21,129 nucleotides of DNA, taken from Deltaproteobacteria bacterium (GTDB taxonomy: Bacteria; Myxococcota_A; Polyangia; Polyangiales; B10-G4). Location of the stretch: positions 1 to 21,129 of the forward strand of contig QMMC01000064.1 in assembly GCA_003647065.1 (NCBI GenBank), given 5' to 3'. A model generated the notes under the pieces. It did no database searches and was not told where the DNA came from. It saw nothing but the letters and a program-made list of their open reading frames with translations. Each line of letters starts with the position of its first letter. The first letter of the stretch is position 1. Of this stretch, positions 229-15,448 are shown one piece after another. Position numbers and translations under genes: made by a program.

Positions 229-1500
229 TCAAGCCGCCCCGATGCCGCGCGGCTCTTCGCCGTACGCTTCGACGCCGCACTCGGCGACGTCGAGGCCCTC
301 GAACTCGTGCTCTGCCGAGACGCGAATGCCGCCCGGGAGCCGGGCGAGGAGCCACCAGAACGCGGCGCCACTGGTGAAGGCGAAGGCGGCGGCGGCGAGG
401 GCGCCGAGGGCCTGGGTGCCGAGGAGGGCGAGGCCGCCGCCGTGGAAGAGACCGGCCTCGGCACTGAAGAGGCCGACGGCGAGGGTGCCGAAGATGCCGC
501 CCATGCCGTGCACCGGGATGGCGCCGACGGGGTCGTCGATGCGCAGGCGCTCCAAGAGGAAGACGCCTTCGACGGCGATGACGCCACCGATGGCGCCGAC
601 GAGGATCGACTCGACGGGGCCGATGACGTGGCACCCGGCGGTAATGGAGACGAGGCCCGCGAGGACGCCGTTGAGGCCCATCGAGAGGTCGAGCATGCCG
701 GTGCGCAGGCGCGTATGGGTGAGGGCGGCGAGGAAGCCGGCTGCCGCTGACAGGTTGGTGACGAGGATGATCGAGGCGATGGCCTCGGGATGGGCGGCGA
801 GCTCGCTGCCGCCGTTGAAGCCAAACCAGCCGAGCCAGAGGATGAGGACGCCGAGGGCGGCGAGGGGGAAGTTGTGGGCCGGCATGGGGCGCGAGCTGCC
901 GTCCTTGCCGTACTTGCCGAGGCGCGGTCCGATGGCCATCGCGCCGGCGAGGGCGAGACCGGCGCCGACGACGTGGACGACCGTCGACCCTGCGAAGTCT
1001 ACGAAGCCGAGGTCCGCGAGGAAGCCGCCGCCCCAGACCCAGTGGCCGACGATGGGATAGACGACGGCCGAGGCGAAGGCAGTGAAGACGAAGAAGGTGC
1101 CGAGGCGCGCCCGCTCGGCGACGGCGCCGCTGACGATCGTCGCTGCGGTGGCCGCGAAGACGAGCTGGAAGAAGAGGAAGACGTAGAGCGGCAGCCCGTC
1201 CGGGGCCCCCGCCACCGATTCGGTCGCCGCCGGGGCGAAGCCCGAGAGGCCGATGAAGGCGTTGCCCTCGCCGAACATCAAGCCGAAGCCGACGAAGAAG
1301 TAGAGCAGTGATGCGATCGAGACGACCGACACGTTCTTCAGGAGCACCATCACGGCGTTCTTGCGTCGACAGAACCCGCTCTCGACGAGGGCGAAGCCCG
1401 CGTGCATGAAGAATACGAGGAAGGCGCTGAGCAGTACCCAGATGCTGTCGATGATCGTCTCGTCCAAGGAAGTCCTCCGCCGTGGGGCCCTCGGCATCAT
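229..1500 (-). CDS. amt: Ammonium transporter, Amt/MEP/Rh family
   Basis: A 423-aa ORF of about 11 TM helices with typical Amt sequence blocks (SIWVLLSAFLVFFMHAGFALVESG, LAGAMAIGPRLG, FGFNGGS, DDPVGAIPVHGMGGIFGTLAVGLF). An alternative TTG start at 1467 is preceded by GGAGG with a 6-nt spacer; it would give MDETIIDSIW and may be the true start. No glnK/PII gene is adjacent on either side. Confidence 0.9.
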   Translation of the reverse strand: MMPRAPRRRTSLDETIIDSIWVLLSAFLVFFMHAGFALVESGFCRRKNAVMVLLKNVSVVSIASLLYFFVGFGLMFGEGNAFIGLSGFAPAATESVAGAPDGLPLYVFLFFQLVFAATAATIVSGAVAERARLGTFFVFTAFASAVVYPIVGHWVWGGGFLADLGFVDFAGSTVVHVVGAGLALAGAMAIGPRLGKYGKDGSSRPMPAHNFPLAALGVLILWLGWFGFNGGSELAAHPEAIASIILVTNLSAAAGFLAALTHTRLRTGMLDLSMGLNGVLAGLVSITAGCHVIGPVESILVGAIGGVIAVEGVFLLERLRIDDPVGAIPVHGMGGIFGTLAVGLFSAEAGLFHGGGLALLGTQALGALAAAAFAFTSGAAFWWLLARLPGGIRVSAEHEFEGLDVAECGVEAYGEEPRGIGAA

Positions 1501-1581: not shown

Positions 1582-2301
1582 ATGCGAAACGCGATTGGAG
1601 CAGCGCTCCTCTTGATCGTCGGCTGCGGTGGGGTGCAGTCAGAACCCGCGGCACCGGCCCCCGAGGCCGAACCCGTCGCCGAGGCCGACGCGCCGCCGGC
1701 CTCGGACCGGATGCAGCAGCACTTCACGGACGTCGGAATCGCCCGGGACGCGGTGATTCAGGGCGACCTCGAGGCGGTCCGGGCGCCCCTCGCGCGCATC
1801 GCCGCAGCCGAGTACGGCTTCGACCTGCCCGCCGATTGGCTCCAGTGGGTCGAGGAGATGCAGCAATCGGCCGGGGGCTACGCCGACTCGGCGGACCTCC
1901 TCGCGGCGGCGAACGCGGTCGCGTCGTTGACCGAGAGCTGCGCCGATTGCCATCGAACCACCCTCGGTGGGCCGGCCATCGCCGAGGAGACTGAACCACC
2001 GCACAACGAGGACCTCGTGGGGTGGATGACCACCCACGCCTGGGGCACGGAGCAGCTGTGGATCGGCCTGACAGCGCCCTCCCACGAGGCTTGGGCCCGC
2101 GGCGCGGCCGCGATCATCGGTGACGGGGCCATCTCCGAGGCCGAAGGCATGAACGAAGCCCTCGCGCCCCAACTCGAAGCGGTCCAGGCCCTCGGAGTCC
2201 GAGCCCGGGAGGCCGGGCAGCCCGCGGAGATGGCGGCCGTCTACGCCGAGATCCTCACCAGCTGCGCGGATTGCCACACCGCCCTCGACGGCAGGCGTTA
2301 G
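1582..2301 (+). CDS. Exported lipoprotein, probable di-haem c-type cytochrome
   Basis: The N-terminus MRNAIGAALLLIVGCGG is a signal peptide with a lipobox Cys. There are two CXXCH haem-attachment motifs (ESCADCHRT near residue 120, TSCADCHTA near residue 232). It is divergent from amt with an 81-bp intergenic region. No strong SD is present. Confidence 0.6.
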   Translation: MRNAIGAALLLIVGCGGVQSEPAAPAPEAEPVAEADAPPASDRMQQHFTDVGIARDAVIQGDLEAVRAPLARIAAAEYGFDLPADWLQWVEEMQQSAGGYADSADLLAAANAVASLTESCADCHRTTLGGPAIAEETEPPHNEDLVGWMTTHAWGTEQLWIGLTAPSHEAWARGAAAIIGDGAISEAEGMNEALAPQLEAVQALGVRAREAGQPAEMAAVYAEILTSCADCHTALDGRR

Positions 2302-2372
2302 CGGCGGTCTGCTGTTGCCGAGGATCCGCCCGGCCTTGTAGGGTGCCCATCGTCTCGAACCGAGAGGGAACG

Positions 2373-3602
2373 ATGGGTGACATCAAGATCGACGGGAAGC
2401 GTCTTTGGAACAGCCTGATGGAGATGGCGAAGATCGGCGCGACCGACAAGGGAGGCGTCTGCCGCCTAGCCCTGACGGACGTCGACAAGGAGGCCCGGGA
2501 CCTCTTCGTCCGGTGGTGTGAAGAGGCGGGCTGCAAAGTCACCATCGACCAGATGGGCAACATCTTCGGCCGCCGCGAGGGCAAGAACCCCGACTCGCCG
2601 CCGGTGATGACCGGCAGCCACATCGACAGCCAGCCCACCGGCGGCAAGTACGACGGCATCTACGGGGTCTTGAGCGGCCTCGAAGTGATCCGCGCCCTCA
2701 ACGACGCCGGCGTCGAGACCGAGGCCCCCATCGAGGTGAGCGCCTGGACCAACGAAGAGGGCTCCCGCTTCGCGCCGGCGATGGTGGCGTCGGGGGTCTT
2801 CGCTGGGGTCTTCGACCTCGAATACGGGCTCAGCCGGGCCGACCTCGACGGCAAGACCATGGGCGAGGAGCTCGTGCGCATCGGCTATGCGGGCGAGGTG
2901 CCCATGGGTAAGCCGGTGAAGGCTTTCTTCGAAACCCACATCGAACAAGGCCCGATCCTCGAAGACGAGGACAAGACCATCGGCGTCGTGACCGACGCCC
3001 AGGGGCAGCGCTGGTACGAGTGCACCTTCACCGGCCAGGAGGCCCACGCCGGGCCGACGCCGATGACCACCCGTCGCGATGCCCTCGTCGGAGCGGCTCG
3101 GGTGATCGAAGCGGTCAACCGCATCGGCCTCGCCCACGCGCCTCTCGCCTGCGCGACCGTCGGTCTGGTTCAGGTCTACCCGAACTCACGCAATACGATC
3201 CCCGGTAGCGTCTTCTTCGCCGTGGATCTGCGCCACCCCGATGATGCCACGCTCTCCAAGATGGACGGCGAGCTCCGTGCGGCGATCGAGGAGGTCGCGG
3301 CGGCGGTGAAGCTCGAGACTGCCCTCGAAGAGATTTGGTACTCGCCGCCGGTGCCTTTCGATGGTGAATGCGTCGCCGCCGTGCGCCGCGCGGCGGAAGC
3401 CAACGGCTTCGCTCATCGAAACATCGTTTCAGGCGCTGGGCATGATGCCTGCTACGTCTCGCGGGTCGCGCCCACGTCGATGATCTTCATCCCCTGCGAG
3501 GGCGGCATCAGCCACAACGAGTCCGAGGAGGCCACCCCCGAACACGTGGCTGCGGGGTGCCAGGTGCTCCTCGACGCGATGCTCGAGCGCGCTGGCTCCT
3601 GA
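2373..3602 (+). CDS. M20-family Zn-dependent amidohydrolase (allantoate amidohydrolase / N-carbamoyl-L-amino-acid hydrolase / beta-ureidopropionase type)
   Basis: Family blocks are present: MTGSHIDSQPTGGKYDGIYGVLSGLEVIRAL, WTNEEGSRFAPAMVASGVF and ETHIEQGPILE. The C-terminal dimerisation region has a conserved HNE (ISHNESEEATPE). The six-frame ORF begins at 2271 but overlaps the upstream gene. The ATG at 2373 is preceded by gagaggga and gives a typical N-terminus (MGDIKIDGKRLW). Confidence 0.85.
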   Translation: MGDIKIDGKRLWNSLMEMAKIGATDKGGVCRLALTDVDKEARDLFVRWCEEAGCKVTIDQMGNIFGRREGKNPDSPPVMTGSHIDSQPTGGKYDGIYGVLSGLEVIRALNDAGVETEAPIEVSAWTNEEGSRFAPAMVASGVFAGVFDLEYGLSRADLDGKTMGEELVRIGYAGEVPMGKPVKAFFETHIEQGPILEDEDKTIGVVTDAQGQRWYECTFTGQEAHAGPTPMTTRRDALVGAARVIEAVNRIGLAHAPLACATVGLVQVYPNSRNTIPGSVFFAVDLRHPDDATLSKMDGELRAAIEEVAAAVKLETALEEIWYSPPVPFDGECVAAVRRAAEANGFAHRNIVSGAGHDACYVSRVAPTSMIFIPCEGGISHNESEEATPEHVAAGCQVLLDAMLERAGS

Positions 3603-4382: not shown

Positions 4383-6530
4383 CTATTGGCAGACGAAGCG
4401 CTCGTCGGACCGGCTGAAGCGCGTGCGGGTTTCGCATCGCTGGTCGGCGAGGCACTCCGGCTCGGCGGCGTCGCACTGGGCGACGCAGCCGGCGGAGCCG
4501 TCGCCGAGGTCGATGCAGAAGGTCTCGGCGTTGCCGGTCCGGTCCGGGCAGAAGGGCCGCTCGGCGGTGCAGGGCAGGCTGCAGAAGGACGGCCCGCCGG
4601 TCCCTGACGTCGCGCAGTATCCGCCTTCGTAGTCGCAGTCGTTGTCCACGGCGCAGGGGCCGCCGATGAACCCCTCGTTGAACGCCGGGTTCACGTCGGG
4701 GAGGGCGCGGATGAAGGCCTCGATGGTCGCCACCGCGGCCTCGCCGTCTGCTGTGGTGGGCCAGGCGCGAAATACCGGCGGCATGGCGGCGGACCCGACC
4801 GGCGTCAGCTTATTGTAGAGGATGCTGGTCTCCGGCGAGCCCGGCTGGATCAAGCCGCCGAGGGCGAGGAGGTAGCGCAGCTCCGGGTACTCGGAGTCGT
4901 CACCGACGATCTGGAAGCCGTCGTGGCAGCCCTGGCACGACGACGAGCGCAGTACTGAGGAGACCATCGCGTCGTAGAGCCCGCGTAGCTCGGCGTCTTC
5001 GTTGAGCAGGCGCCTATAGGCGGGGTAGACGTCGACTCGGGCGGCCGCGGGGAGCGCGCCCTGGGCTCGGCCGAGGACGAGGATCGAGCGGTTCTTGTCG
5101 TCGGCCATCCAAATCGTCCCGTCCGCTGCGACGTAGGGCGCGACCGGCGCACCCTTGGGGCGCACGTTGGGAACGGCGAACCAAGCGTCGATGAGATACG
5201 AGCCCTGGGCCGCGAAGACAGAGCCCGAGGTCGTCGGATACTCGCGCTCGACCGAGGTGCCGGCGCCGGTTGGGTCTTCGAGGTAGGTCGCGCCCTCTTG
5301 GCGGATCGGCAGGCCGTTCGGGTCGACCTCGAAGGCGAGCAGGCGATGGCCCGCGGGGCGGTAGCCGTGCATCGGGACCAGGAGCTGGCCCTCGAGCTCT
5401 TCGAACATGTCGCCGTGGTAGTAGGTGAGGCCCAGCGGCGCGCCGTGGGGCGGCAAGAGTACGTGGGGCGGTCGGTAATCGGGGTTGTCGATGCTGCACA
5501 GGAACGCGTCGTAGTCCGCCCACTCTTCGCTCGTGCTGTCGACGTCGTAGCAGTAGGGCCAGCCGTAGTGCTTGGGCGGTTCGAGTCCTTCCAGTTCAGC
5601 ACGGGGGATGACGTTCAGCTCCTCGAAGGGGCGTCCGCCATCTGGGAAATCGCGGCCGTTCTCTACCTGGAGCAGGTCGCCGTTGGGCGCGAAGGCGAGG
5701 CCCATCGAGTTGCGCAAGCCGAAGGCGACGACGCGGAAGGTGGGGTCCCATCCGTCGACGACTGAGCCGCGATAGTCGTAGCGCCGAATCACGCCGCCAT
5801 GGTCTTCGGGGCGGGCGGCCGGCGGGCCGCCTCCGAGCACGCCGTCGGCTTCGAGGCACTCGCCCCCGAGGAAGCCCGCGCAGTGGTCCGAGAACGCCCC
5901 GACGTTGAGGTAGAGGTTGCCGACGTCGTCGAAGACGAACTGCGTCAGGGGGTGGTAGCTGTTGCGCGACCCGTTTCGGTCCATCGGCGGCAGGCCGTCG
6001 ACCACCGTGACGATCGCGCTCTCGTCGATGGTGCCATCGGCTCCGACCGCGTCGGCCGGGAACGCGAAGATACGGGTATCCTCGCCGACGAAGATGTGGC
6101 CGTCGGGGCCGACGGCGACCAGGTGCGGCACCGAGAGCCCGCTGAGGACCCGGGTCAGGGTCGAGTTCGGCGGCGTGCTCGCGTCGAGGTAGTAGAGGCC
6201 GCCGCGTCCCGGGTCCCAACCGCCGAGGTCGGTTACTAGAAACTGATACGGGCGCCCCGGGAGCTCGACCAAGGTGCGCGGCGAGAACGTCGTGCCGTCG
6301 TCTCCGGCGACCACACCCGCGCAGGCGTAGTCCGCCGTGTCGACGACCACCCGAGGCCAGCCGCCACAGGTGACGCCGGTCCGCGAATAGTCATCGGCCT
6401 TGCCGGTCGGGAGCGGCGGGAGGTCTTCCCGGCGCTCGGCCACTTCACCGGAGGCGCACGCGCCCACGAGGCCGAGGGCCGAGAGGCCCAGGAGCGCCAG
6501 CGAGAGCAGGATCAAACTTTTGGCATGCAT
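4383..6530 (-). CDS. Lipoprotein: soluble glucose/sorbosone dehydrogenase-like beta-propeller fused to a c-type cytochrome domain and a Cys-rich C-terminal tail
   Basis: Signal peptide plus lipobox (MHAKSLILLSLALLGLSALGLVGAC). SGDH-family blocks are present (HLVAVGPDGHIFVGED, HYGWPYCY, LLPPHGAPLGLTYY, GTIWMADDKNRSILVL). There is a CXXCH haem motif (SSCQGCHDGF) followed by about 90 aa with 14 Cys. The GTG at 6554 is an alternative start; the ATG at 6530 gives a clean signal peptide. Confidence 0.75.
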   Translation of the reverse strand: MHAKSLILLSLALLGLSALGLVGACASGEVAERREDLPPLPTGKADDYSRTGVTCGGWPRVVVDTADYACAGVVAGDDGTTFSPRTLVELPGRPYQFLVTDLGGWDPGRGGLYYLDASTPPNSTLTRVLSGLSVPHLVAVGPDGHIFVGEDTRIFAFPADAVGADGTIDESAIVTVVDGLPPMDRNGSRNSYHPLTQFVFDDVGNLYLNVGAFSDHCAGFLGGECLEADGVLGGGPPAARPEDHGGVIRRYDYRGSVVDGWDPTFRVVAFGLRNSMGLAFAPNGDLLQVENGRDFPDGGRPFEELNVIPRAELEGLEPPKHYGWPYCYDVDSTSEEWADYDAFLCSIDNPDYRPPHVLLPPHGAPLGLTYYHGDMFEELEGQLLVPMHGYRPAGHRLLAFEVDPNGLPIRQEGATYLEDPTGAGTSVEREYPTTSGSVFAAQGSYLIDAWFAVPNVRPKGAPVAPYVAADGTIWMADDKNRSILVLGRAQGALPAAARVDVYPAYRRLLNEDAELRGLYDAMVSSVLRSSSCQGCHDGFQIVGDDSEYPELRYLLALGGLIQPGSPETSILYNKLTPVGSAAMPPVFRAWPTTADGEAAVATIEAFIRALPDVNPAFNEGFIGGPCAVDNDCDYEGGYCATSGTGGPSFCSLPCTAERPFCPDRTGNAETFCIDLGDGSAGCVAQCDAAEPECLADQRCETRTRFSRSDERFVCQ

Positions 6531-7167: not shown

Positions 7168-7680
7168 TCAGCGCTCTCCGGGCTTCGGGAGGGCGTCCCG
7201 GGACTCGAAAACGGGCACCTTCGCCAGGGATCGGAGGTGATCTTTCGGCAGGCGGTGGGCCCGGGCTCCGGCGAGGACCAAGTCGAGGTACTCGCGCCGC
7301 GGAGGGATCACCTCGGCCGACCGGAACTCCGCGCGCACGACGTAGAGCCAGGCTTGGGTCTCCCCGGCGGGGACCCGCACGGTGACCGGAGCGTCTCCCC
7401 GGGAGTATCGACCCGGGTGCCCTTCCTTCTCGTCGAGGGCCAGAAGGCCGCCGTCGTCGACCTCGAGGACGACTCCGGGGAGTTCGACCCCCGCGCGCCG
7501 GTGCACATTGGCCGCGCCGCCCTTTCGCGCAGGCGACCGGTAGTTCCAGACGAGCTCCCATCCCGAGAGCAGCCCCTGGTAGGCGTTCAGCACGTTCCCG
7601 TCGCCGTGACCGCGGTCTTCCATCCACCGGCGCAGATCGGGCAGGTGCATGTTGGAGCCGTAGGCGAAGACGCGATGCAT
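7168..7680 (-). CDS. Gamma-glutamyl cyclotransferase (GGCT/C7orf24-type)
   Basis: The 170-aa product starts MHRVFAYGSNM (GGCT signature YFAYGSNL). KGGAANV matches HGGIATI of human GGCT. LDEKEGHPGRY matches LDEQEGVKSGMY, including the catalytic Glu of the LDxxEG block. Its ATG shares one nucleotide with the TGA of the upstream gene (TGATG at 7678-7682). The six-frame ORF has a 157-aa N-terminal extension, rejected because it overlaps the upstream CDS in another frame. Confidence 0.75.
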   Translation of the reverse strand: MHRVFAYGSNMHLPDLRRWMEDRGHGDGNVLNAYQGLLSGWELVWNYRSPARKGGAANVHRRAGVELPGVVLEVDDGGLLALDEKEGHPGRYSRGDAPVTVRVPAGETQAWLYVVRAEFRSAEVIPPRREYLDLVLAGARAHRLPKDHLRSLAKVPVFESRDALPKPGER

Positions 7681-8620
7681 CACGGCTCGGTGCTCGTCTC
7701 TCCTGGCGGATCCACCTCGAATCGTGCCGCCAGCCTTTGCACCCACCGCCAGTCGAGGATCTTCTCGACGCGAAAGAAGCACGCAAACGCAACGCCGGTG
7801 AGCTGGTAGACGAAGCCAATAGCCATCATCAGCAACACGCCCCAGTGGAAGCCCCAGATGAGCACGGCCCAGACCACGCCGGCTCGCCGGTGAAGGAGCG
7901 CGGCCGGGGCTCCCCACTCGATGATCAGGCTCAGCCAGGCCATGGCGGCGAAGAAGAGCGGGTACGAGAGCAGCCAGGCGCCGAGGGGCGAGTACACGCT
8001 GCCCAGCTCGATTTTGCGCACGTTGTCGTAGGCGATGTAGTTGCGGAGGTTCACCTCGCTGACGAACTCGGCGCCGCTGTTGCCGTACTTGGCGAAGGCC
8101 GCCAGCAGATAGACGGCCGTGCATACGATGGCGATGAGGCGGATGGCCCACCCGTAGCGCCCGCTCTCTTCGCCCTTCTTTACTCGGCCCGCGCGCGAAT
8201 CGAGGGAGATGGCGTCGGCCGCTGGGGCGAGGGCGAGGACGATGATCTGCAAAGTCATCATGTGGTCGACGTGCAGGATCATCCCGAAGGAGTTCGAGTA
8301 GGTGAGCACCCAGAGCTGCAGCGCGGCGAAGATCGGGCCGGTGATTCGATAGCGGTAGCCAAAGGCGAAGCAGGCTGCGAAGACGATGGTGAGTATCACC
8401 AGGGCGATGACGACCGCCGGCAGGAGAGGCCGCGGCGCGAAGGTGGCGAGGCCAACGGGCCGAAAGAAGGCCTGGTCGACGTGGGCGTAGCTCATCAGGA
8501 AGGGCGAGCGAATGATCAGGTAGATCAGCGCGTAGCCTCCGACGAGCACGCGCAGCATACCGAGGCGCTCGGCCGGGGCCGAGGGCATGAAGACCCGGTC
8601 CATGGCGCCGATCACGGCGT

Positions 8621-8624
<4 letters not shown>
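7680..8624 (-). CDS. Polytopic integral membrane protein (about 8 TM), family unassigned; possibly HTTM-like
   Basis: The 314-aa product is very hydrophobic with multiple predicted TM helices (LRVLVGGYALIYLII, LLPAVVIALVILTIVFAACFAF, IRLIAIVCTAVYLLAAF, VLLMMAIGFVYQLTGVAFACFF). Its start ATGA overlaps the upstream gene stop at 8621-8624. Its stop overlaps the GGCT start. Any HTTM-like fold is a guess from size and topology only. Confidence 0.65.
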
Positions 8625-9073
<449 letters not shown>

Positions 9074-9104
9074 CGCTGGCAGATTATGCTTACCATCCGC
9101 CGCC

Positions 9105-10298
9105 ATGGGGAGCCTCTCCATTCTTTCGGCGTTGATGATCCTGGCCGCGGCATCCGTCTCGGCGCAGGCCCCGGACCCTGCCGACGGGGGCCTCGACGCG
9201 TCGGCGGATGCGGGCGATGCGGGCGATGCGGGCGAAGGCGGCGATGCTGCCCCGCGCGCCGACGACGAGCTGCTCCCGGCGATCGTGGAACTTCCGGCCG
9301 AGCCCCTCGACCTGGTCGTCGGCGTCGCGGGCAGTGAGCCCTTCGTCATCGTGGGGGACGGCCGGCTTCGAGGGATCAGCATCGAGACCTGGGAGAAGGT
9401 GGCCTCGGAGCTAAACATTCGTTATGAGTACCGTCCTTATCCGAACGCCCTCAGTTTGGTGAACGCCGTCGCCCGGGGCGACGTGGACGTGGGGGTCGGG
9501 CCCCTCAGCATCACCAGCGAGCGGGCCTCTCGCGTCTCCTTCACCCAGCCCCACTTCTCGGGCTCCCTCTCCATCGCCGCCCGTCCAGCCGAGCGCGGGA
9601 TCTTCGGCCACCTATCGCCGCTCTTCCGACGGGCGTTCCTCACGGGCCTCGCCATCCTCCTCCTCGTGCTGACCTTCGTGGGGGTCCTCTTCTGGCTCGC
9701 GGAGCGACGGGCCAATCCCGAGCACTTCCCGCCCTCACCCCTCAGTGGCATCGGCAACGGTGTCTGGCTCGCGGTCGTGACGATGACCACCGTCGGCTAC
9801 GGTGACCGCTCACCGATGACTCCCCTCGGACGGGTCATCGCCGGGGTGTGGATGCTCATCGCGCTGCTGACCACGTCGTCGCTCACGGCGTTCCTGGCGA
9901 CGGCGCTCACGCTCTCGACCCTCGACCACGCGGCGATCGACACCATCGAAGACCTCGAGGGAAAGCGCGTCGCGGTTCCCCGGGGAACTGCCGCGGTGCC
10001 CTTCGTGCGCCGCCATGGCGGCCGCGTGGTCGAAGCCGACAGCGTCCAGGACGCCATGCGCCTCGCCAACGAGGGCGAGGTCGCCGCCACGGTCTTCGAC
10101 ACTCCGGTCCTCGCCTACGAGCTCACGCAGCATCCCGACCTCGCGTTGGTGCTCTCGCAGCACAGCTACGAAGACGTGGGCTACGGCTTCGCCGTGGCCA
10201 TTGGCAGTGAGTTTGAGGAGCTCATCGACATGAAGCTCCTCAAGCTCAGGGAATCGGCGGGCATGGACGTGATCCGTACCGGGTGGCTGGGGCCCTGA
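9105..10298 (+). CDS. Prokaryotic ionotropic glutamate receptor-like ligand-gated K+ channel (GluR0-type): SBP lobe S1, M1, P-loop, M2, SBP lobe S2
   Basis: Signal peptide MGSLSILSALMILAAASVSAQA, then an acidic low-complexity stretch (DAGDAGDAGEGG). A type-3 solute-binding-protein-like segment follows. M1 is LTGLAILLLVLTFVGVLFWLA. The pore helix plus K+ selectivity filter is VWLAVVTMTTVGYGD. M2 is VIAGVWMLIALLTTSSLTAFLATAL. A second SBP half follows (KRVAVPRGTAAV...TPVLAYEL). A GTG at 9063 is an alternative start. Confidence 0.8.
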   Translation: MGSLSILSALMILAAASVSAQAPDPADGGLDASADAGDAGDAGEGGDAAPRADDELLPAIVELPAEPLDLVVGVAGSEPFVIVGDGRLRGISIETWEKVASELNIRYEYRPYPNALSLVNAVARGDVDVGVGPLSITSERASRVSFTQPHFSGSLSIAARPAERGIFGHLSPLFRRAFLTGLAILLLVLTFVGVLFWLAERRANPEHFPPSPLSGIGNGVWLAVVTMTTVGYGDRSPMTPLGRVIAGVWMLIALLTTSSLTAFLATALTLSTLDHAAIDTIEDLEGKRVAVPRGTAAVPFVRRHGGRVVEADSVQDAMRLANEGEVAATVFDTPVLAYELTQHPDLALVLSQHSYEDVGYGFAVAIGSEFEELIDMKLLKLRESAGMDVIRTGWLGP

Positions 10299-10301
10299 AC
10301 G

Positions 10302-11588
10302 GTGCATCCGCTTCGCCCCTACCTGGCCCGGGCTCCGCGCGCCGTCTTCGTCGTCTACGCCATCACTGCGGCCTTCGCGACGTACTTCGGCATGTACGCC
10401 TTCCGGAAGCCCTTCGCCGCCGCGACCTTCGAAGGGCAGTCCTTCTTCGACACCGGCCTCGACCTCAAGACGGCCTTCGTCATCAGCCAGATCCTCGGCT
10501 ACACGCTGAGCAAGTACGCGGGCATCAAGGTCGTCTCGGAGATCACCCCGGGCCGCCGGGCGCTCACCCTCGTCTCCCTCATCGCCGTCGCCGAGCTCGC
10601 CCTCGTGGGTTTCGGTTTTCTCCCGATGGCGCTCATGTCGGTGTCGCTCTTCGTCAACGGCCTCAGCCTCGGCATGATCTGGGGCTTGGTCGTGCGCTAC
10701 CTCGAAGGCCGCCAGAGCTCGGAGCTCCTCCTCGCCGGCCTCAGCACGTCCTTCATCCTCGCCTCCGGCGCCGTCAAGGACATCGGCCGGTGGTTGATCA
10801 CGGACCACGGAGTGGCCGAGACCTGGATGCCGGCGGCGACCGGCGCGATCTTCTTCCCCGTGTTCATCCTGGCGGTCTGGCTCCTGGATCAGATCCCCGA
10901 CCCCACAGACGAAGATAAGAGGACCCGCGTCGAGCGGCGCCCTATGGACGCGGCCGAACGGCGCGCCTTCTTGAAGCGCTTTGCTGTCGGCCTCGTGCCC
11001 CTCTTCGGGGTCTACATCGCGTCGACCGCCTACCGAGACTTCCGCGACAACTACGGCGTCGAGATCTTCGCGGCCCTCGGCTACGAGGGGGAGCCTGGCA
11101 TCTTCACGCAGTCCGAGATCTGGGTCGCCCTCGGCGTGCTCGCGGTCCTCGCCAGCCTGAACCTCATCAAAGACAACCGCCGGGGCCTCGCCGCAGCGTT
11201 CGGGGTGATGATCGTCGGCGCCGTGCTCATCGGCGGGTCGACCGTCCTCCTCGATGCCCAGGCCATCGACGGAATGACGTGGATGATCCTCGTCGGCCTC
11301 GGCTCGTACTTCGTCTACGTGCCCTTCAATACGGTCCTCTTCGACCGCATGATCGCGGCGACTCGGGTGCAGGCGACGGCGGTCTTTGCGATCTACATCG
11401 CCGATGCCCTCGGCTACACCGGCTCCATCGGAGCCCAGCTCTACAAGGACTTCGGTGACCCGACGTCCACCCGCCTCGGCTTCTTCCGGAGCTTCTCGTA
11501 CGGCTTCGCGGTCGTGGGTGCCGTTTTGCTCGTCTTGTGCCTGCTTTACTTCTGGCGTCGAAGCGGGCCCGCGTCCGAAACGGCGTGA
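10302..11588 (+). CDS. Polytopic membrane protein, transporter-like (about 12 TM, two-halves organisation), family unassigned
   Basis: A 428-aa hydrophobic protein. Its GTG start is 4 nt after the stop of the GluR0-like gene, so co-transcription is likely. There are two blocks of about 6 TM each, separated by a charged loop (DPTDEDKRTRVERRPMDAAERRAF). An alternative start is M31 (10392). Confidence 0.65.
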   Translation: MHPLRPYLARAPRAVFVVYAITAAFATYFGMYAFRKPFAAATFEGQSFFDTGLDLKTAFVISQILGYTLSKYAGIKVVSEITPGRRALTLVSLIAVAELALVGFGFLPMALMSVSLFVNGLSLGMIWGLVVRYLEGRQSSELLLAGLSTSFILASGAVKDIGRWLITDHGVAETWMPAATGAIFFPVFILAVWLLDQIPDPTDEDKRTRVERRPMDAAERRAFLKRFAVGLVPLFGVYIASTAYRDFRDNYGVEIFAALGYEGEPGIFTQSEIWVALGVLAVLASLNLIKDNRRGLAAAFGVMIVGAVLIGGSTVLLDAQAIDGMTWMILVGLGSYFVYVPFNTVLFDRMIAATRVQATAVFAIYIADALGYTGSIGAQLYKDFGDPTSTRLGFFRSFSYGFAVVGAVLLVLCLLYFWRRSGPASETA

Positions 11589-11718
11589 TCGCGAGAGATC
11601 TGGCTCGGGATCGCGGCCCCGTCAGGCGGGCATCGCCAACATTGGCCTGAGAGGTGCTTTCGGGTAAGCTCGCCGCCCCCAAACGGGGATCTGGCTTCCT
11701 ATTAGGAGAGACGAGCGC

Positions 11719-13008
11719 ATGTCGAAGGATTCGTTGACGGTCACTGACAACCGGACCGGGCAGACCTACGAGCTCCCCGTCGATGATGGGACCATCCGGG
11801 CGATAGACCTGCGTCAGATCAAGACGTCCGACGACGATTTTGGCCTCATGGCCTACGACCCCGCGTACAAGAACACCGCGTCGACGAGGTCCAACGTCAC
11901 CTTCATCGACGGTGAAAAGGGCATCCTCGAGTATCGGGGCTACGGCATCGAAGAGCTCGCCGAGAAGTCGAGCCACCTCGAGGTCAGCTATCTGCTGGTG
12001 CACGGCGAGCTGCCGACGAAGACCCAGCTCGATGCCTGGACCCACGAGATCACGAATCACACCTTGGTCCACGAAAACATCCGGGAGCTGGTCGACGCGT
12101 TTCGCTACGACGCCCACCCGATGGGTATCCTGGTGAGCACCGTCGGGGCGCTGAGCACCTTCTACCCGGACGCGAAGGACATCCAGGACCCGGAGGCCCG
12201 GCGCCTCCAGATGCACCGCCTGATCGCCAAGGTCCCGACTATCGCGGCCTACGCTTATCGCCATCGCCGCGGCCTGCCCTACGTCTACCCGGACAACGAC
12301 CTCAGCTACTCCGGCAACTTCTTGTCCATGATGTTCAAGATGACCGAGCCGAAGTACAAGCCGAGCCCCGCCATCGAGAAGGCCCTCGACGTGCTCTTCA
12401 TCCTGCACGCGGACCACGAGCAAAACTGCTCGGCGTCGGCGATGCGCGCGGTCGGGTCGAGCCACGTCGACCCCTACAGCGCGACGGCGGCAGCCTGCGC
12501 GGCGCTCTACGGTCCCCTCCACGGCGGCGCCAACGAAGCCGTCGTGCGCATGCTCGGAGAGATCGGCAGCGTCAAGAACATCCCCTCGACTCTCGAGAAG
12601 GCGAAGAACGGCGAGTTCCGCCTGATGGGATTCGGCCACCGCGTCTACAAGAACTACGACCCCCGGGCGAAGGTCATCAAGAAGCTCGCCTACGAGGTCT
12701 TCGACGAGGTCGGCAAGAACCCCCTCATCGACATCGCCGTCGAGCTCGAGCGGATCGCCCTCGAAGACGAGTACTTCGCCAAGCGCAAGCTCTTCCCCAA
12801 CGTCGACTTCTACAGTGGCCTCATCTACCAGGCGCTGAACCTGCCGATGGACATGTTCCCGGTGCTCTTCGCCATCGGGCGGACGCCGGGGTGGCTGTCC
12901 CAGTGGGAAGAGATGCTGACCGACCCCGAGCAGAAGATAGCGCGGCCGCGGCAGATTTATCTCGGCGAGCGCGGGCGTAGCTACGTGCCGGTCGACAAGC
13001 GCGGGTAG
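11719..13008 (+). CDS. gltA: Citrate synthase (type II, hexameric Gram-negative type)
   Basis: A 429-aa product with canonical citrate synthase blocks (GYGIEELAE, HRLIAKVPTIAAYAYR, HADHEQNCSASAMRAVGSSH, LHGGANEAV, GFGHRVYKNYDPRA, DFYSGLIYQALNLP). A strong SD (taggagagacgagcgc) precedes the ATG. Confidence 0.95.
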   Translation: MSKDSLTVTDNRTGQTYELPVDDGTIRAIDLRQIKTSDDDFGLMAYDPAYKNTASTRSNVTFIDGEKGILEYRGYGIEELAEKSSHLEVSYLLVHGELPTKTQLDAWTHEITNHTLVHENIRELVDAFRYDAHPMGILVSTVGALSTFYPDAKDIQDPEARRLQMHRLIAKVPTIAAYAYRHRRGLPYVYPDNDLSYSGNFLSMMFKMTEPKYKPSPAIEKALDVLFILHADHEQNCSASAMRAVGSSHVDPYSATAAACAALYGPLHGGANEAVVRMLGEIGSVKNIPSTLEKAKNGEFRLMGFGHRVYKNYDPRAKVIKKLAYEVFDEVGKNPLIDIAVELERIALEDEYFAKRKLFPNVDFYSGLIYQALNLPMDMFPVLFAIGRTPGWLSQWEEMLTDPEQKIARPRQIYLGERGRSYVPVDKRG

Positions 13009-13010
13009 GC

Positions 13011-13108
13011 GTCAACAAGAAGGCGCCGCGTAGGCGGCCCGAGGCGGGAGCGCGACGCAGTCGCGCAGAGCCGACAGGCCGACCGTAGCGGCGCTGGGAG
13101 TGCGCAGT
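13011..13108. repeat. REP-like GC-rich intergenic element, copy 1 (inverted relative to copy at 15203-15447)
   Basis: The ~98 bp starting 2 nt after the gltA stop is the reverse complement of units A2+B1 at about 15250-15345 (e.g. tcaacaagaaggcgccgcgtaggcggcccgaggcgg.agcgcgacgcagtcg.gcagagccgacaggccgaccgtagcggcgc.gggagtg). It contains short GC hairpins (GCCGC-GTAG-GCGGC; CGCGAC-GCA-GTCGCG). Confidence 0.7.
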
Positions 13109-13217
13109 CGCCTGAAACGCGATACCCGGCGCGATCTGGCCTCGCTTGGGTCCCGCGTTCCAACCGACGCTGTTGCGTTCGGCTGGGCGGTGGCTCTGCT
13201 GCGGGTGAGTGTTGTAC

Positions 13218-13430
13218 GGCGACGGACACGGCGACGGATGCCGCGACGGCCTCGGACACGGCGACGGCCTCGGACACGGCGATGGACACGGACACGGACC
13301 CGGACACGGCGACGGGAACGCGAACGGGAACGGGAACGGGAACGGGAACGCGAACGGGAACGGGAACGGGAACGGGAACGGGAACGGCCTCGGCGACGGC
13401 CACGGCGACGGCCACGGCCTCGGACACTAC
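13218..13430. repeat. Hexanucleotide microsatellite (GACGGC / GGAACG units), intergenic
   Basis: About 210 bp of imperfect 6-nt tandem repeats (…ggacacggcgacggc… then (gggaacg)n, about 15 near-identical units). All six frames give low-complexity peptides (GDGHGD/NGNGNG, RERERE, TGTGTG, PVPVPV). It lies between convergent genes. Confidence 0.75.
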
Positions 13431-13440
13431 CGTCCTCGTA

Positions 13441-14034
13441 TCATGCGCCAGCTCGTCGAATGGCGATCGGTGTCTTGACCGACCCATCGAAGACGAAGCC
13501 GCCTGCCGAGGGGTGTCCCGGCCCGGCAACTTCGACGAGGGTGCCGTCCGGCGGCAGAGATCCCTCGAGTTCGACGAGCAAGAGATGGTCGTCGTCGACC
13601 TTCGCCGTGCCGGTCGCGTCGTGTACGAAGAAGACCGGCGGCCGCGCGTCGAAGGGGTCGTGGTTTGCGGCCCGATGGAGCTCGCCGCGAACACGTACGA
13701 TGCCGAGGGTCGCGTGTGCGGTCTGGACGAGACCAACCCCGTCCACCGTCGCCGATACGCGTGAGACCTTCCTGCGCGCACGCCAAGCGCTGAACGCGCG
13801 ATGCGCTCCGTGGGTGAGGGCAATCGTGACGATGACCAGGGCGGGAACGCCGAAGAGAAGTATCAGCGACCAGGCACCGAAATGCGCGTGGTGATGAGTC
13901 TCGAGTAGGTAGCCACGGGGCTGCGCTTGGAGACGGCCGACCGCGTGAAGGACGAAGGCCGGCAAGATCGTCAGACCCATCCATCGGGAGTTGACCCGAT
14001 CGCGGAGGGTCGCCGTGGGGACGTGAGAGTCCAT
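13441..14034 (-). CDS. Membrane-anchored protein (2 TM plus about 110-aa soluble C-terminal domain), unknown function
   Basis: MDSHVPTATLRDRVNSRWMGLTILPAFVLHAVGRL and FGAWSLILLFGVPALVIVTIALT are two TM helices. The start ATG at 14034 is preceded by GGAG. The six-frame ORF extends to 14262, giving alternative Mets at 14079 and 14262. The plus-strand ORF 13282-13764 is antisense and is rejected. Confidence 0.45.
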   Translation of the reverse strand: MDSHVPTATLRDRVNSRWMGLTILPAFVLHAVGRLQAQPRGYLLETHHHAHFGAWSLILLFGVPALVIVTIALTHGAHRAFSAWRARRKVSRVSATVDGVGLVQTAHATLGIVRVRGELHRAANHDPFDARPPVFFVHDATGTAKVDDDHLLLVELEGSLPPDGTLVEVAGPGHPSAGGFVFDGSVKTPIAIRRAGA

Positions 14035-14239
14035 CTTGAGAACAGTCTCCTGGTGCCGAGTTGGGTCGAGGTAGCGCATGCGGCAGGACAGTGCAGCTCG
14101 TATGCCAAGCGCGTTGTCGCGTGAGTTTGGGGCTTCCCGTTGTTTGGCGGTGGATTTCGCCCGGAGCGGTCTGTCGCTGCGAGCGTGACGCCCCGGTCGC
14201 TCTTTCTCCCGTGGGGCCGCCTCCCGCCGGCCCGGTCCC

Positions 14240-14316
14240 GATCTTCCGATCTTCATCTTCACGATCTTCAGATTCGGGGAAATCCGGACGGGGGGAGATC
14301 TGGGGGGAGATCTGGA
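14240..14316. promoter_or_regulatory. Direct-repeat motifs (GATCTTC x3; GGGGGGAGATCTGG x2) in promoter region of minus-strand gene 13441-14034
   Basis: The sequence ccGATCTTCcGATCTTCatcttcacGATCTTCagattc is followed by ggggGAGATCTGGggggGAGATCTGG. AGATCT is palindromic. The motifs lie about 200-280 bp upstream of the start codon. Confidence 0.35.
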
Positions 14317-14367
14317 CCCGGTGGACGGTGAACGGCGTCTTCCCGCTGGCCGGTGAATTCCCCCGGG

Positions 14368-15126
14368 CTACTCCCTTTCGGCGGCTGGATCGGCCGCGGC
14401 TTCATCCGGGGCCGCTGCGCCCTCCGCACTCCACTCGCGGTCGATGCGCACTTGGGCGTGTTCGAAGAGCCCCATGAGCGCCACCGATCCGAAGTCGTCT
14501 GCGATCTCGCCGAAGCTCCTCAACTCGATGGCGCCCCAGTTTCTCGAGTTCACCGGCATGGTGCAGACGGCCCGCAGCTCGGTGTCGAGCAAGAAGGCTT
14601 GTCCGTCTAGGTGGCCGGAACGATAGCTACCGCTCGCGGTCCGCACGGGAGCCAGCAGCCTGTCGACACGGATGACGGTGAGCACGACCGGCGGCTCTTC
14701 GACGGCGCCGGCGGCGAGCGCCTCTCGCAGTCGCGGCCCGTCGTCGCGCCCGAGGAAGACCCGCAGCCGGTCCGCGTGGCCAAGGGCGGGGATGGTGTGC
14801 CCGAAGCCGCGTTCCAAGACGCCGACCACGCTCGGGATGACGTCGGTGGTGAACTGCGGCGAGCGCACCATCACGAAGCGCTCCCGTCGCGGGGCGGCGA
14901 GGACTTCCGCAGGGCACCGGTCCCCGACGCTCGGGTCGAGGGCGGCGATCGCGCGGTCCCAAGCGGCGCGCGCCGGGGCGCCCGCCGCCTCGGCCTCGGT
15001 CGCCGCCGCGAGGGCCTGCTCGCGAAGTTCCGGGGATACGCCTTCCGCCTCAGCCGCCGTCTCGTCGCAGCCCGCCCAGAGCAGCATGACCAACGCGCAA
15101 CCAATGATCCGCCTCGGATTTCCCAT
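14368..15126 (-). CDS. Lipoprotein, unknown function
   Basis: MGNPRRIIGCALVMLLWAGCDE carries a signal peptide and a lipobox. The product is 252 aa with no recognisable catalytic motif. The ORF extends to 15144. Confidence 0.5.
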   Translation of the reverse strand: MGNPRRIIGCALVMLLWAGCDETAAEAEGVSPELREQALAAATEAEAAGAPARAAWDRAIAALDPSVGDRCPAEVLAAPRRERFVMVRSPQFTTDVIPSVVGVLERGFGHTIPALGHADRLRVFLGRDDGPRLREALAAGAVEEPPVVLTVIRVDRLLAPVRTASGSYRSGHLDGQAFLLDTELRAVCTMPVNSRNWGAIELRSFGEIADDFGSVALMGLFEHAQVRIDREWSAEGAAAPDEAAADPAAERE

Positions 15127-15202
15127 GGGTCGCGATGGTACCACCGACGGCGCGACTACGCGGTCGTGCGCACCTCGGACGGTTCAGTCGGGAACGGCAC
15201 GG

Positions 15203-15447
15203 CACTCCCGGCGCCGCTGCGGTCGGCCTGTCGGCTCTGCACGCCTGCGCACTCCCGGCGCCGCTACGGTCGGCCTGTCGGCTCTGCACGACTGCGTCGC
15301 GCTGCCGCCTCGGGCCGCCCTACGCGGCGCCTTCTTGTTGAGGCCTCCGTCGCGCTGCCGCCTCGGGCCGCCTACGCGGCGCCTTCTTGTTGAGGCCTCC
15401 GTCGCGCTGCCGCCTCGGGCCGCCTACGCGGCGCCTTCTTGTTGACC
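15203..15447. repeat. REP-like element copy 2 with tandem amplification (unit A about 47 bp x2; unit B about 52 bp x3)
   Basis: Unit A (cactcccggcgccgct.cggtcggcctgtcggctctgcacg) appears twice. Unit B (gtcgcgctgccgcctcgggccgcc(c)tacgcggcgccttcttgttgaggcctcc) appears three times head-to-tail, with the last copy truncated. The array lies immediately 3' of the esterase gene stop (15449). It has the same orientation relative to that gene as copy 1 has to gltA. Confidence 0.75.
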
Positions 15448-15448
15448 C

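Follow-up and report, generated by a model that had tools for sequence, protein, structure and literature searches.

The question raised by this locus is whether the gene at positions 9105..10298 encodes a ligand-gated ion channel of the GluR0 type and, if so, what it may sense and whether the membrane protein gene directly behind it takes part. It is accepted that, among prokaryotes, GluR0-type channels form the link that joins K+ channels and periplasmic binding proteins to synaptic glutamate receptors. To our knowledge they have been studied only from cyanobacteria, and a physiological role for a channel of this type was reportedly first described in 2026. The window, which is the whole stretch of DNA analysed (21,129 nucleotides), holds the gene complete, encoding 397 amino acids on the + strand and ending in a stop codon at 10296-10298; the features located within it and the gene downstream lie on the same strand. 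An identical protein (P0001) is present in an ENA assembly.

The open reading frame list gives two possible starts for the frame ending at 10298, a GTG at 9063 and an ATG at 9105. The ATG is the better start because it yields a signal peptide of 20 to 22 residues ending in VSA followed by QA, like those of the closest homologues P0002 and P0003, and because overlap with a divergent gene starting at 9073 is then avoided. The GTG was rejected, as it overlaps that gene and adds a 14-residue extension absent from homologues. With the ATG, the channel gene and the divergent gene are spaced by approximately 31 bp, and a scan of positions 8500-11900 for sigma-70 promoters found none. The predicted signal peptide (aa 1-20, MGSLSILSALMILAAASVSA; 9105..9164) includes a helix at aa 3-16 in the structural model, and the hydrophobic N-termini of P0003 and P0002 are equivalent, ending in ALA and ARA respectively, each followed by Q. 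Cleavage is predicted by eye after VSA or AQA.

The S1-M1-P-M2-S2 arrangement given by the original prediction is borne out by profile matches, homology to solved structures and fold comparison, which concur. The protein consists of the signal peptide, an acidic linker, S1, M1, a P-loop (TMTTVGYGD), M2 and S2. The three Pfam profiles suggested as a check were all matched above their cut-offs, namely SBP_bac_3 at 61.4 bits (cut-off 26.4), Lig_chan (PF00060) at 53.0 bits (gathering threshold 30.8) over aa 185-287, and Ion_trans_2 at 49.0 bits (cut-off 22.5) over aa 184-269; Lig_chan-Glu_bd, at 27.5 bits, fell slightly under its cut-off of 30. The SBP_bac_3 match is a single one over aa 70-396, which indicates an SBP fold split by the pore insert, and the Lig_chan match sets the protein apart from a generic two-TM K+ channel. 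In a phmmer search of the PDB the top match was the ligand-binding core of Synechocystis GluR0 (1ii5/1iit, E=1e-26), over the stretches aa 68-158 and 280-397, followed in the ranking by GluD2, NpGluR0, GluD1 and AMPA receptors, aligned over LBD plus TMD. An AlphaFold2 (AF2) monomer model (pLDDT 88, pTM 0.74) runs from a beta/alpha S1 through helices M1, P and M2 to a beta/alpha S2, with the two SBP halves forming a clamshell (pLDDT >95) round the pore insert, and over about 370 columns Foldseek matched it to the LBD-TMD chains of AMPA receptors (E~1e-22).

The first clamshell half, S1 (aa 66-165; 9300..9599), contains P133, S135 and the invariant Arg140 (nt 9522-9524), and the second, S2 (aa 276-397; 9930..10295), contains G294-T295-A296 and the invariant Asp332 (nt 10098-10100), as supported by the GluR0 alignment over aa 280-397 and by the model. 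Between them, the transmembrane helix M1 (aa 176-200; 9630..9704) is modelled with a pLDDT of about 95 and is supported by the Ion_trans_2 and Lig_chan matches, and the inner helix M2 (aa 240-271; 9822..9917) is a helix over the same residues in the model. The 'SYTANLAAF' gate region of iGluR M3 aligns with TSSLTAFLATALT of M2; in the HMMER alignment to GluD2, SSLTAFLATALT is paired with SSYTANLAAFLT, and residues S258, S259, L260 and A262 of this helix are invariant or at least 90 % conserved. By Pfam and the model there is no amino-terminal domain (ATD) and no M4: just a disordered linker of approximately 45 residues precedes S1, and the chain ends in WLGP straight after S2, without a TM helix beyond it. 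The protein is thus a 'Group 1' prokaryotic iGluR, a type-3 SBP fold split around M1-P-M2, and very probably forms GluR0-type homotetramers that act as amino-acid-gated K+ channels, tetramer formation being expected by analogy with GluR0 and the iGluRs. It belongs clearly to a family that has been described before, and is an ordinary representative of it, with nothing new in kind.

The pore helix (aa 212-228) and the K+ filter TMTTVGYGD (aa 226-234) lie at 9738..9806, as read from the sequence. The canonical TTVGYGD motif that had been noticed between M1 and M2 was located at aa 228-234 (nt 9786-9806) and is near-invariant in the family, with T226, G231, Y232, G233 and D234 unchanged in all of 53 homologues; across 265 related proteins tallied, xTTVGYGDx is found in 189 and the broader T-x-G-[YF]-G-D in 251. 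By analogy with GluR0, the pore would be K+-selective. These data also bear on a different reading, in which the protein is a membrane-anchored binding protein that feeds amino acids to an ABC importer and the insert is an anchor only. Databases indeed name such a protein a 'transporter substrate-binding domain-containing protein' and label homologues 'polar amino acid transport system substrate-binding protein', and there are weak, partial NCBIfam matches to GlnH and ArtJ, but these are far under their cut-offs (the best, GlnH, reaches 56.9 bits against 303) and such annotations have been called errors by Ger et al. (PMC2950845). The insert, moreover, amounts to a complete K+ pore module in which T-x-x-T-V-G-Y-G-D is invariant, and the TMD is the most conserved region of the homologue alignment, at 60 % mean identity as compared with 41-44 % for S1 and S2. 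No ABC permease or ATPase gene is present in the window, and an importer component is scarcely credible beside a GluR0-type channel.

The ligand pocket of the channel keeps the residues expected of an amino-acid receptor. R140, D332, F80 and P79 are invariant in 53 of 53 homologues, S135 and T295 are kept too, and R140 and D332 align with ligand-contact residues of GluR0 and GluD2. Four positions set the pocket apart from GluR0 and the consensus alike, A296 (Thr), T333 (Arg), H150 (Tyr) and D357 (Pro), and the residue at the position of Ala296 is Thr in GluR0 and in 38 of the 53 relatives. This position corresponds to Thr655 of GluA2, a contact of the ligand side chain, which leaves room for a preferred agonist other than glutamate. 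The pocket comparison with GluR0 that had been proposed thus finds the Arg and Asp contacts kept, with GTA here for DTT and DTP here for DRP, and the caution that sequence does not reveal the ligand was fair, since the recognisable contacts are those to the amino-acid backbone alone.

The four departures would also suit a K+ channel that has lost its ligand gating and now provides a constitutive, or tension- or voltage-modulated, leak or uptake path, with the LBD as a structural or regulatory cap. The channel has diverged further than its neighbours between the window and the syntenic locus L002 (59-64 % identity as compared with 71-87 %). For GluR0 itself, the passages describing K+ uptake in E. 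coli mention no added agonist, and membrane tension is raised by the authors as a possible stimulus (PMC13099474). Retention of all six ligand residues argues, however, against ligand binding being dispensable, as does the confidently modelled clamshell, and loss of gating is considered very unlikely.

A mechanism for the ligand-gated channel can be proposed from GluR0 and iGluR knowledge. The signal peptide would export the N-terminus, placing the linker, S1 and S2 in the periplasm; PhoA fusions in GluR0, a K+ channel also of 397 residues, are described as putting both the N- and the C-terminus in the periplasm (PMC13099474). As the M1-P-M2 module sits between S1 and S2 in the chain, the pore would be inverted in comparison with that of KcsA, its TTVGYGD filter facing the cytoplasm. 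An L-alpha-amino acid would enter the cleft, where Arg140 may grip its carboxylate and Asp332 its amino group, with Ser135 and Thr295 giving backbone and hydroxyl contacts and Phe80 acting as a lid; prokaryotic iGluRs have been described as defined by this conserved Arg and Asp in the binding site (PMC2950845). Closing of the cleft would tug the S1-M1 and M2-S2 linkers and open the M2 bundle crossing (the SSLTAFLA region), and K+ would then move down its electrochemical gradient. Such a channel could give the cell a coupling between the external availability of amino acids and both membrane potential and K+/turgor homeostasis. GluR0 complements K+ uptake in E. coli, and its gating by glutamate in vivo is still unproven according to the discussion of that work (PMC13099474).

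Between the signal peptide and S1 lies the acidic, Asp/Ala/Gly-rich linker (aa 21-65; 9165..9299), which is modelled without secondary structure at a pLDDT of 45-62 and has a mean identity of 16 % across homologues, as compared with 41-60 % for the domains. Tandem Repeats Finder placed a 9-nt tandem repeat in it (unit GATGCGGGC, 4.6 copies, 9207..9247), which encodes DAGDAGDAG, and in a pattern search the two-unit 18-mer gave 2 matches where 0.01 would be expected by chance. The array had been described from sequence as a triplicate at 9208-9234; the three perfect copies are there, one base earlier, at 9207-9233. It is less unusual than was supposed, since 30 out of 244 K+-filter homologues have DAG motifs in the linker before S1, as do all three closest relatives, and the repeat belongs to a disordered, low-complexity spacer (pLDDT below 50).

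The gene downstream (10302..11588) encodes a DUF5690 membrane protein of the MFS clan (Pfam DUF5690, 470 bits, with a weak match to MFS_1). It starts three bases past the channel stop codon, no terminator-like site was found at the junction, and the two genes are probably co-transcribed, judging from their spacing. It was suggested in the original prediction that the channel and this transporter could form an amino-acid- or osmolyte-sensing electrical signalling unit. In a fuller form of that idea, the channel would be functionally coupled to the transporter, its clamshell sensing the transported substrate, an amino-acid-like osmolyte or aminophosphonate and not a proteinogenic amino acid, while K+ flux balances charge or turgor. 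Besides the 3-nt gap, three observations lean this way: the same pair of genes overlaps by 4 nt in L002, a syntenic close relative; the gene for P0002, the next closest channel (61 % identical), overlaps the end of a TRAP DctQMP operon by 4 nt; and the P0002 cluster also has an M24/creatinase-like enzyme, an AstE/AspA-like enzyme and a BCCT transporter. In addition, some DUF5690 proteins occur as fusions with a PhnZ-like HD domain, with HAD and DAO enzymes encoded after them, which hints at an organophosphonate or amine as substrate. The phosphonate idea is drawn solely from these fusions and neighbours, as the PDB, the literature and AepP gave it no support: a sequence search of the PDB with DUF5690 returned no significant match, the single paper found to mention DUF5690 places it in the MFS clan and goes no further, and AepP, a known MFS 2-aminoethylphosphonate permease, is GlpT-like and is not called DUF5690 in its description.

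The wider neighbourhood stands against such a unit. In 88 loci fetched, 81 of them with a channel relative, DUF5690 adjoins a channel relative in L002 only. The orthologous locus L084, which is equally related, has the order HTTM-hyp / DUF5690-kinase-citrate synthase without the channel, with 83 % identity to the window in DUF5690, 84 % in citrate synthase and 74 % in HTTM, and a 60-bp gap at the place where the channel would be expected; L086 and L087 likewise have DUF5690 and no channel. All-against-all clustering of the open reading frames within ±4 kb of the channel in the 81 loci (52 groups at 90 % identity) found no partner conserved across lineages. It gave lineage-restricted synteny blocks (PCC/glutaredoxin, metallophosphoesterase, ECH, Cys/Met PLP enzyme, RIO kinase), and the channel is found near transposases, near a TPR protein with a kinase, and near housekeeping genes. 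The binding residues, too, are those that the family as a whole has for alpha-amino acids in general. DUF5690 is therefore not a conserved partner of the channel, and functional coupling of the two is unlikely. We consider equally doubtful a wider speculation, that this small Myxococcota sublineage recruited the channel into operons with secondary solute transporters (DUF5690 here and in L002, TRAP in the P0002 cluster, which resembles compatible-solute catabolism), that the atypical Ala296/Thr333/His150 pocket senses the transported compound, an amino-acid-like osmolyte or aminophosphonate, and that uptake is coupled electrically and osmotically to K+ flux; the same applies to its broader version, in which the many myxobacterial GluR0 homologues would change the membrane potential in response to amino-acid signals from outside the cell in the course of social behaviour.

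The channel family itself proved to be far from rare in bacteria, contrary to what had been stated of it. Clustering of homologues at 50 % identity leaves 779 representatives at E<=1e-30, most of which belong to Myxococcota, and 2891 at the looser E<=1e-10, and at least 226 clusters at 90 % identity, again mostly from Myxococcota, share the four-domain Pfam pattern. The class of prokaryotic iGluRs was catalogued in 2010 with 12 sequences, given by accession and annotation alone, and the description of the Group 1 members makes no mention of Myxococcota (PMC2950845); the GluR0-type clade found here is much larger than that set. A literature search for myxobacterial iGluR or K+ channels found nothing relevant. 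The window thus shows the family to be large and well conserved in Myxococcota, and public annotation still to mislabel its members as ABC-transporter binding proteins. Myxococcota feed on and signal with amino acids, and a cultured homologue, such as the Corallococcus protein P0024, would be a practical system for studying the role of an amino-acid-gated K+ channel in a social bacterium.

Among known systems, the closest comparators are GluR0 of Synechocystis PCC 6803 (Slr1257; 1ii5, 1iit, 1iiw) and of Nostoc punctiforme (2pyy). The protein resembles GluR0 in its length of 397 residues, its domain order, the GYGD filter, the WLGP end, the Arg (S1) and Asp (S2) contacts, and the absence of an ATD and of a third TM helix after S2. 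Unlike GluR0, it has the acidic DAG-rich linker ahead of S1 and the altered pocket motifs described above, its LBD identity is just 33 %, and its genome is high-GC and Myxococcota-like, not cyanobacterial. It agrees with the Group 1 iGluRs as these are defined in PMC2950845, with a two-section glutamate-binding domain flanking two TM helices and a P-loop K+ filter (IPR013099), and also in the predicted signal peptide and the conserved Arg/Asp. The ABC-importer binding proteins GlnH, ArtJ and HisJ/LAO share SBP_bac_3 with it, but are soluble or lipid-anchored, continuous, free of a pore insert and partnered by ABC permeases. With the eukaryotic iGluRs (AMPA GluA1-4, delta GluD1/2, kainate, NMDA and plant GLR) it shares the fold and connectivity of LBD and TMD, the alignment of M2 with the SYTANLAAF gate helix and, presumably, the inverted pore. 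Identity to them is only about 21 %, and the ATD, M4 and C-terminal tail are lacking, while a K+-selective GYG filter stands in place of their non-selective Q/R/N-site pore loop. Membership in the AMPA, kainate, NMDA or delta subfamilies was rejected on the absence of a LIVBP-like ATD and of M4 and on the GYG filter, and the protein is best described as a homologue of the LBD-TMD core of these receptors.

The channel gene lies on the forward strand at positions 9105-10298, in an open reading frame that begins at GTG 9063 or ATG 9105 and ends with the TGA at 10296-10298. ATG 9105, the start also chosen in the original prediction, is taken as the start here, giving 397 aa, because it yields a hydrophobic, signal-peptide-like N-terminus (MGSLSILSALMILAAASVSA/QA, the slash marking the putative cleavage site) whose length and cleavage-site pattern agree with those of the two closest homologues, P0003 (...VALA/QAPDAG) and P0002 (...PARA/QDEQ), and because GTG 9063 would overlap the divergent gene, whose Met is at 9073. 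The K+ filter TTVGYGD was found as predicted, at nt 9786-9806, inside TMTTVGYGD (aa 226-234); xTTVGYGDx occurs in 189 of 265 related proteins and the broader T-x-G-[YF]-G-D in 251 of them. Pfam returned a single SBP_bac_3 match (61.4 bits, aa 70-396) interrupted by an insert, with Lig_chan (53.0 bits, gathering threshold 30.8, aa 185-287) and Ion_trans_2 (49.0 bits, gathering threshold 22.5, aa 184-269) both above gathering, and Lig_chan-Glu_bd (27.5 bits) slightly below its threshold of 30. NCBIfam gave solely far-sub-threshold partial matches (GlnH and ArtJ binding proteins, K+ channels), and the NCBI naming models therefore leave this channel family uncovered. Among all PDB sequences, Synechocystis GluR0 (Slr1257; 1ii5, 1iit) gave the top match through its ligand-binding core, with E=1e-26 over two segments (aa 68-158 and aa 280-397), followed by GluD2, Nostoc GluR0, GluD1, plant GLR3.4 and AMPA receptors, with alignments that span S1, the membrane domain and S2.

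Alongside an alignment of 53 homologues, an AlphaFold2 model was obtained (mean pLDDT 88, pTM 0.74), which predicts a disordered segment at aa 18-60 (pLDDT about 45-60), an alternating beta/alpha S1 at aa 68-159, three helices corresponding to M1, the pore helix and M2 (aa 176-200, 212-228 and 240-271) and a beta/alpha S2 at aa 281-395, with no helix beyond S2. When the whole model was searched with Foldseek, AMPA-receptor LBD-TMD chains came top (E~1e-22, about 370 aligned columns); the TM-scores of about 0.48 are an effect of the absent M4 and the differing LBD/TMD tilt. The model thus places a predicted clamshell around the pore insert. Given the predicted fold and the Foldseek and family matches, neither a missing clamshell nor missing Lig_chan homology can be held against the original prediction, and its core interpretation, a GluR0-like channel, is correct.

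Mean identity of related proteins to the window protein is highest in the membrane domain (60%), lower in S1 (44%) and S2 (41%), and 16% in the linker. The 9-nt repeat GATGCGGGC that encodes part of this linker is a real array, with 4.6 copies at 9207-9247 (TRF) and two overlapping 18-mers against 0.01 expected in a pattern search; the coordinates first given for the same array were one base off. The DAG repeat is not the unusual addition it was thought to be, as linkers of the same kind occur in the closest relatives (P0002, ...DADAGRAEDTDAGDAGDVDAGDAGEAG...; P0003, ...APDAGVDAGDASTDAS...SDAGAE...) and at least one DAG stands upstream of S1 in 30 of 244 filter-containing homologues, in mutually unalignable forms. 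The acidic DAG linker is a disordered, fast-evolving spacer, the length of which varies through slippage of the GC-rich 9-mer. Some role for it, e.g. in cation binding or periplasm-spanning spacing, is conceivable, although nothing points there.

For comparison of the ligand pocket, the S1 and S2 sequences of GluR0 were added to the family alignment of 53 homologues. The residues contacting the amino-acid backbone are taken by us to be P478, T480, R485, S654, T655 and E705 in GluA2, and R75, T118, G119 and D157 in GlnBP. Presumed backbone-contact residues are kept in the channel at P133 (49/53) and S135 (52/53), R140 and D332 are each invariant (53/53), the position of T295 is Thr or Ser in 53/53, and the lid aromatic F80 is found in 53/53. 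The same Arg and Asp pair served Ger et al. as the hallmark of prokaryotic iGluRs (PMC2950845). Judging from the retained backbone contacts and this hallmark, the ligand is very probably an alpha-amino acid. By alignment, likeness to the GluR0 pocket appears to hold at the backbone contacts but not at the side-chain end, where four positions depart from GluR0 and the family consensus (A296, T333, H150 and D357). A296, which we equate with GluA2 T655, a residue in contact with the gamma-carboxylate, is Thr in GluR0 and 38/53; T333 is Arg in 45/53 and Thr in the window protein alone among the 53; H150 and D357 stand where the consensus has Tyr and Pro, respectively. These departures suggest that glutamate should not be assumed as the ligand, and nothing beyond that.

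Downstream of the channel, after 3 nt, lies a gene for a DUF5690 membrane protein (10302-11588, +; 470 bits; MFS clan), followed by citrate synthase (11719-13008, +). Since the gap is 3 nt and no terminator-like site was found at the junction, the channel and DUF5690 are likely co-transcribed. Upstream, on the reverse strand, are genes for a GGACT/AIG2-like cyclotransferase (7168-7680), an HTTM protein (7680-8624) and a 150-aa hypothetical protein with no Pfam match (8621-9073); this triad (7168-9073), with overlapping stop and start codons, is kept in the syntenic relative L002 (a JGI contig), and the HTTM and 150-aa pair also in L084. L002 has the same channel-DUF5690 arrangement, with DUF5690 83% identical and the channel (1935-3098) 59% identical, or 64% without the linker, against 71-87% for its neighbours, so the channel evolves at a markedly higher rate than the genes around it. 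L084, as near to the window as L002 (HTTM 74%, hypothetical protein 73%, DUF5690 83%, citrate synthase 84%), has the order HTTM-hypothetical protein, 60 bp, DUF5690-Ser/Thr kinase-citrate synthase, with the channel absent (5470-6001, against 8621-10302 in the window). The kinase gene also stands behind DUF5690 in L002, and in the window its place is a 130-bp gap before citrate synthase; the channel and kinase genes have thus each been gained or lost here among close relatives.

The original prediction of a signalling unit with a coupled transporter was not borne out. Two more DUF5690 loci, L086 and L087, lack the channel as L084 does, and in 80 metagenomic loci with channel relatives DUF5690, HTTM and the other window neighbours were found in none. 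Neighbour clustering around channel relatives showed lineage-restricted synteny and nothing else, and other members have other contexts: P0002 stands behind a TRAP transporter, P0009 adjoins transposases, and P0059 adjoins a TPR protein and a kinase. The adjacency therefore comes from the channel having been gained or lost locally at this site, and the two genes do not form a conserved device. In the window, L002 and L001, which have the three closest channels, the channel is translationally coupled to a secondary-transporter gene, a weak residual hint of a tie to such transporters in this sublineage, which we consider improbable.

P0002, the closest non-syntenic channel (61% identical; L001 1-9990, ENA ERZ25039549 contig_15220), has a 4-nt overlap with a TRAP DctQ-DctM-DctP operon, at the operon's end. 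Close by, L001 also encodes a creatinase/peptidase M24 enzyme, a Gln-synt_C/AstE-AspA protein, a beta-eliminating lyase, a BCCT transporter and a histone-deacetylase-like enzyme, a set reminiscent of clusters for the catabolism of compatible solutes or amino-acid derivatives. DUF5690 itself is highly conserved (5613 matches, typically 56-62% identical) and carries an HD domain, fused at the C-terminus, in the metagenomic proteins P0358, P0365, P0367, P0370 and P0384. The fused domain is named 'phosphonate degradation associated HDIG domain protein' by JGI, i.e. PhnZ-like, and behind the P0370 fusion lie genes for a HAD hydrolase and a DAO-family oxidoreductase. These fusions and neighbours suggest that DUF5690 may transport an organophosphonate or related amine; it would be a different transporter from AepP, the known MFS 2-AEP permease, which is GlpT-like.

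Elsewhere in the window, a 709-aa ORF (16511-18640, -) matches MVP_shoulder (98.9 bits), Vault_3 and Vault_4, domains of the eukaryotic Major Vault Protein; a bacterial homologue of this kind is uncommon. Across 13100-16500 (3.4 kb, both strands), none of seven long overlapping candidate ORFs had a Pfam match at E<=0.001. Other genes include an Amt ammonium transporter, an M20 peptidase and a BrkB/YihY-type membrane protein, among those at 229-1500 (-), 2271-3602 (+) and 19606-20478 (-).

Contrary to what had been supposed, such channels are not rare in bacteria. A word-indexed search gave at least 226 clusters at the 90% identity level, and HMMER, run exhaustively over 1.84 billion 50%-identity representatives, gave 779 at E<=1e-30 and 2891 at E<=1e-10. 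The 120 matches listed of the at least 226 have the same domain combination at 42-61% identity, with one identical; the named sources among them are Myxococcota (Polyangiales, Sandaracinaceae, Myxococcaceae, Corallococcus), and all are labelled solely 'transporter substrate-binding domain-containing protein' or 'polar amino acid transport system substrate-binding protein'. The HMMER scan also returned P0155 (2362 aa), which has five distinct regions of similarity to the channel (246 bits, 25% identity); it may be an iGluR-like protein that is concatenated or has several domains, or else an artefact of assembly or gene calling.

The channel belongs to a known family, of which it is a new but unremarkable member. 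[quoted passage not shown] By analogy with GluR0 and by iGluR homology, four subunits would form a K+-selective pore with the filter towards the cytoplasm, and the periplasmic clamshells would shut on an amino acid, whereupon the linkers would separate the M2 helices. External amino acids could then rapidly alter membrane potential or K+ content in a Myxococcota-like host living on peptides and amino acids. For GluR0, the founding member, an experimental topology and a physiological phenotype are now available; this 2026 study supports a part in fast K+ and volume responses, with ligand gating in vivo not demonstrated there (PMC13099474). When the channel is aligned to GluD2, its M2 segment SSLTAFLATALT falls opposite SSYTANLAAFLT, which is the gate motif in eukaryotic iGluRs.
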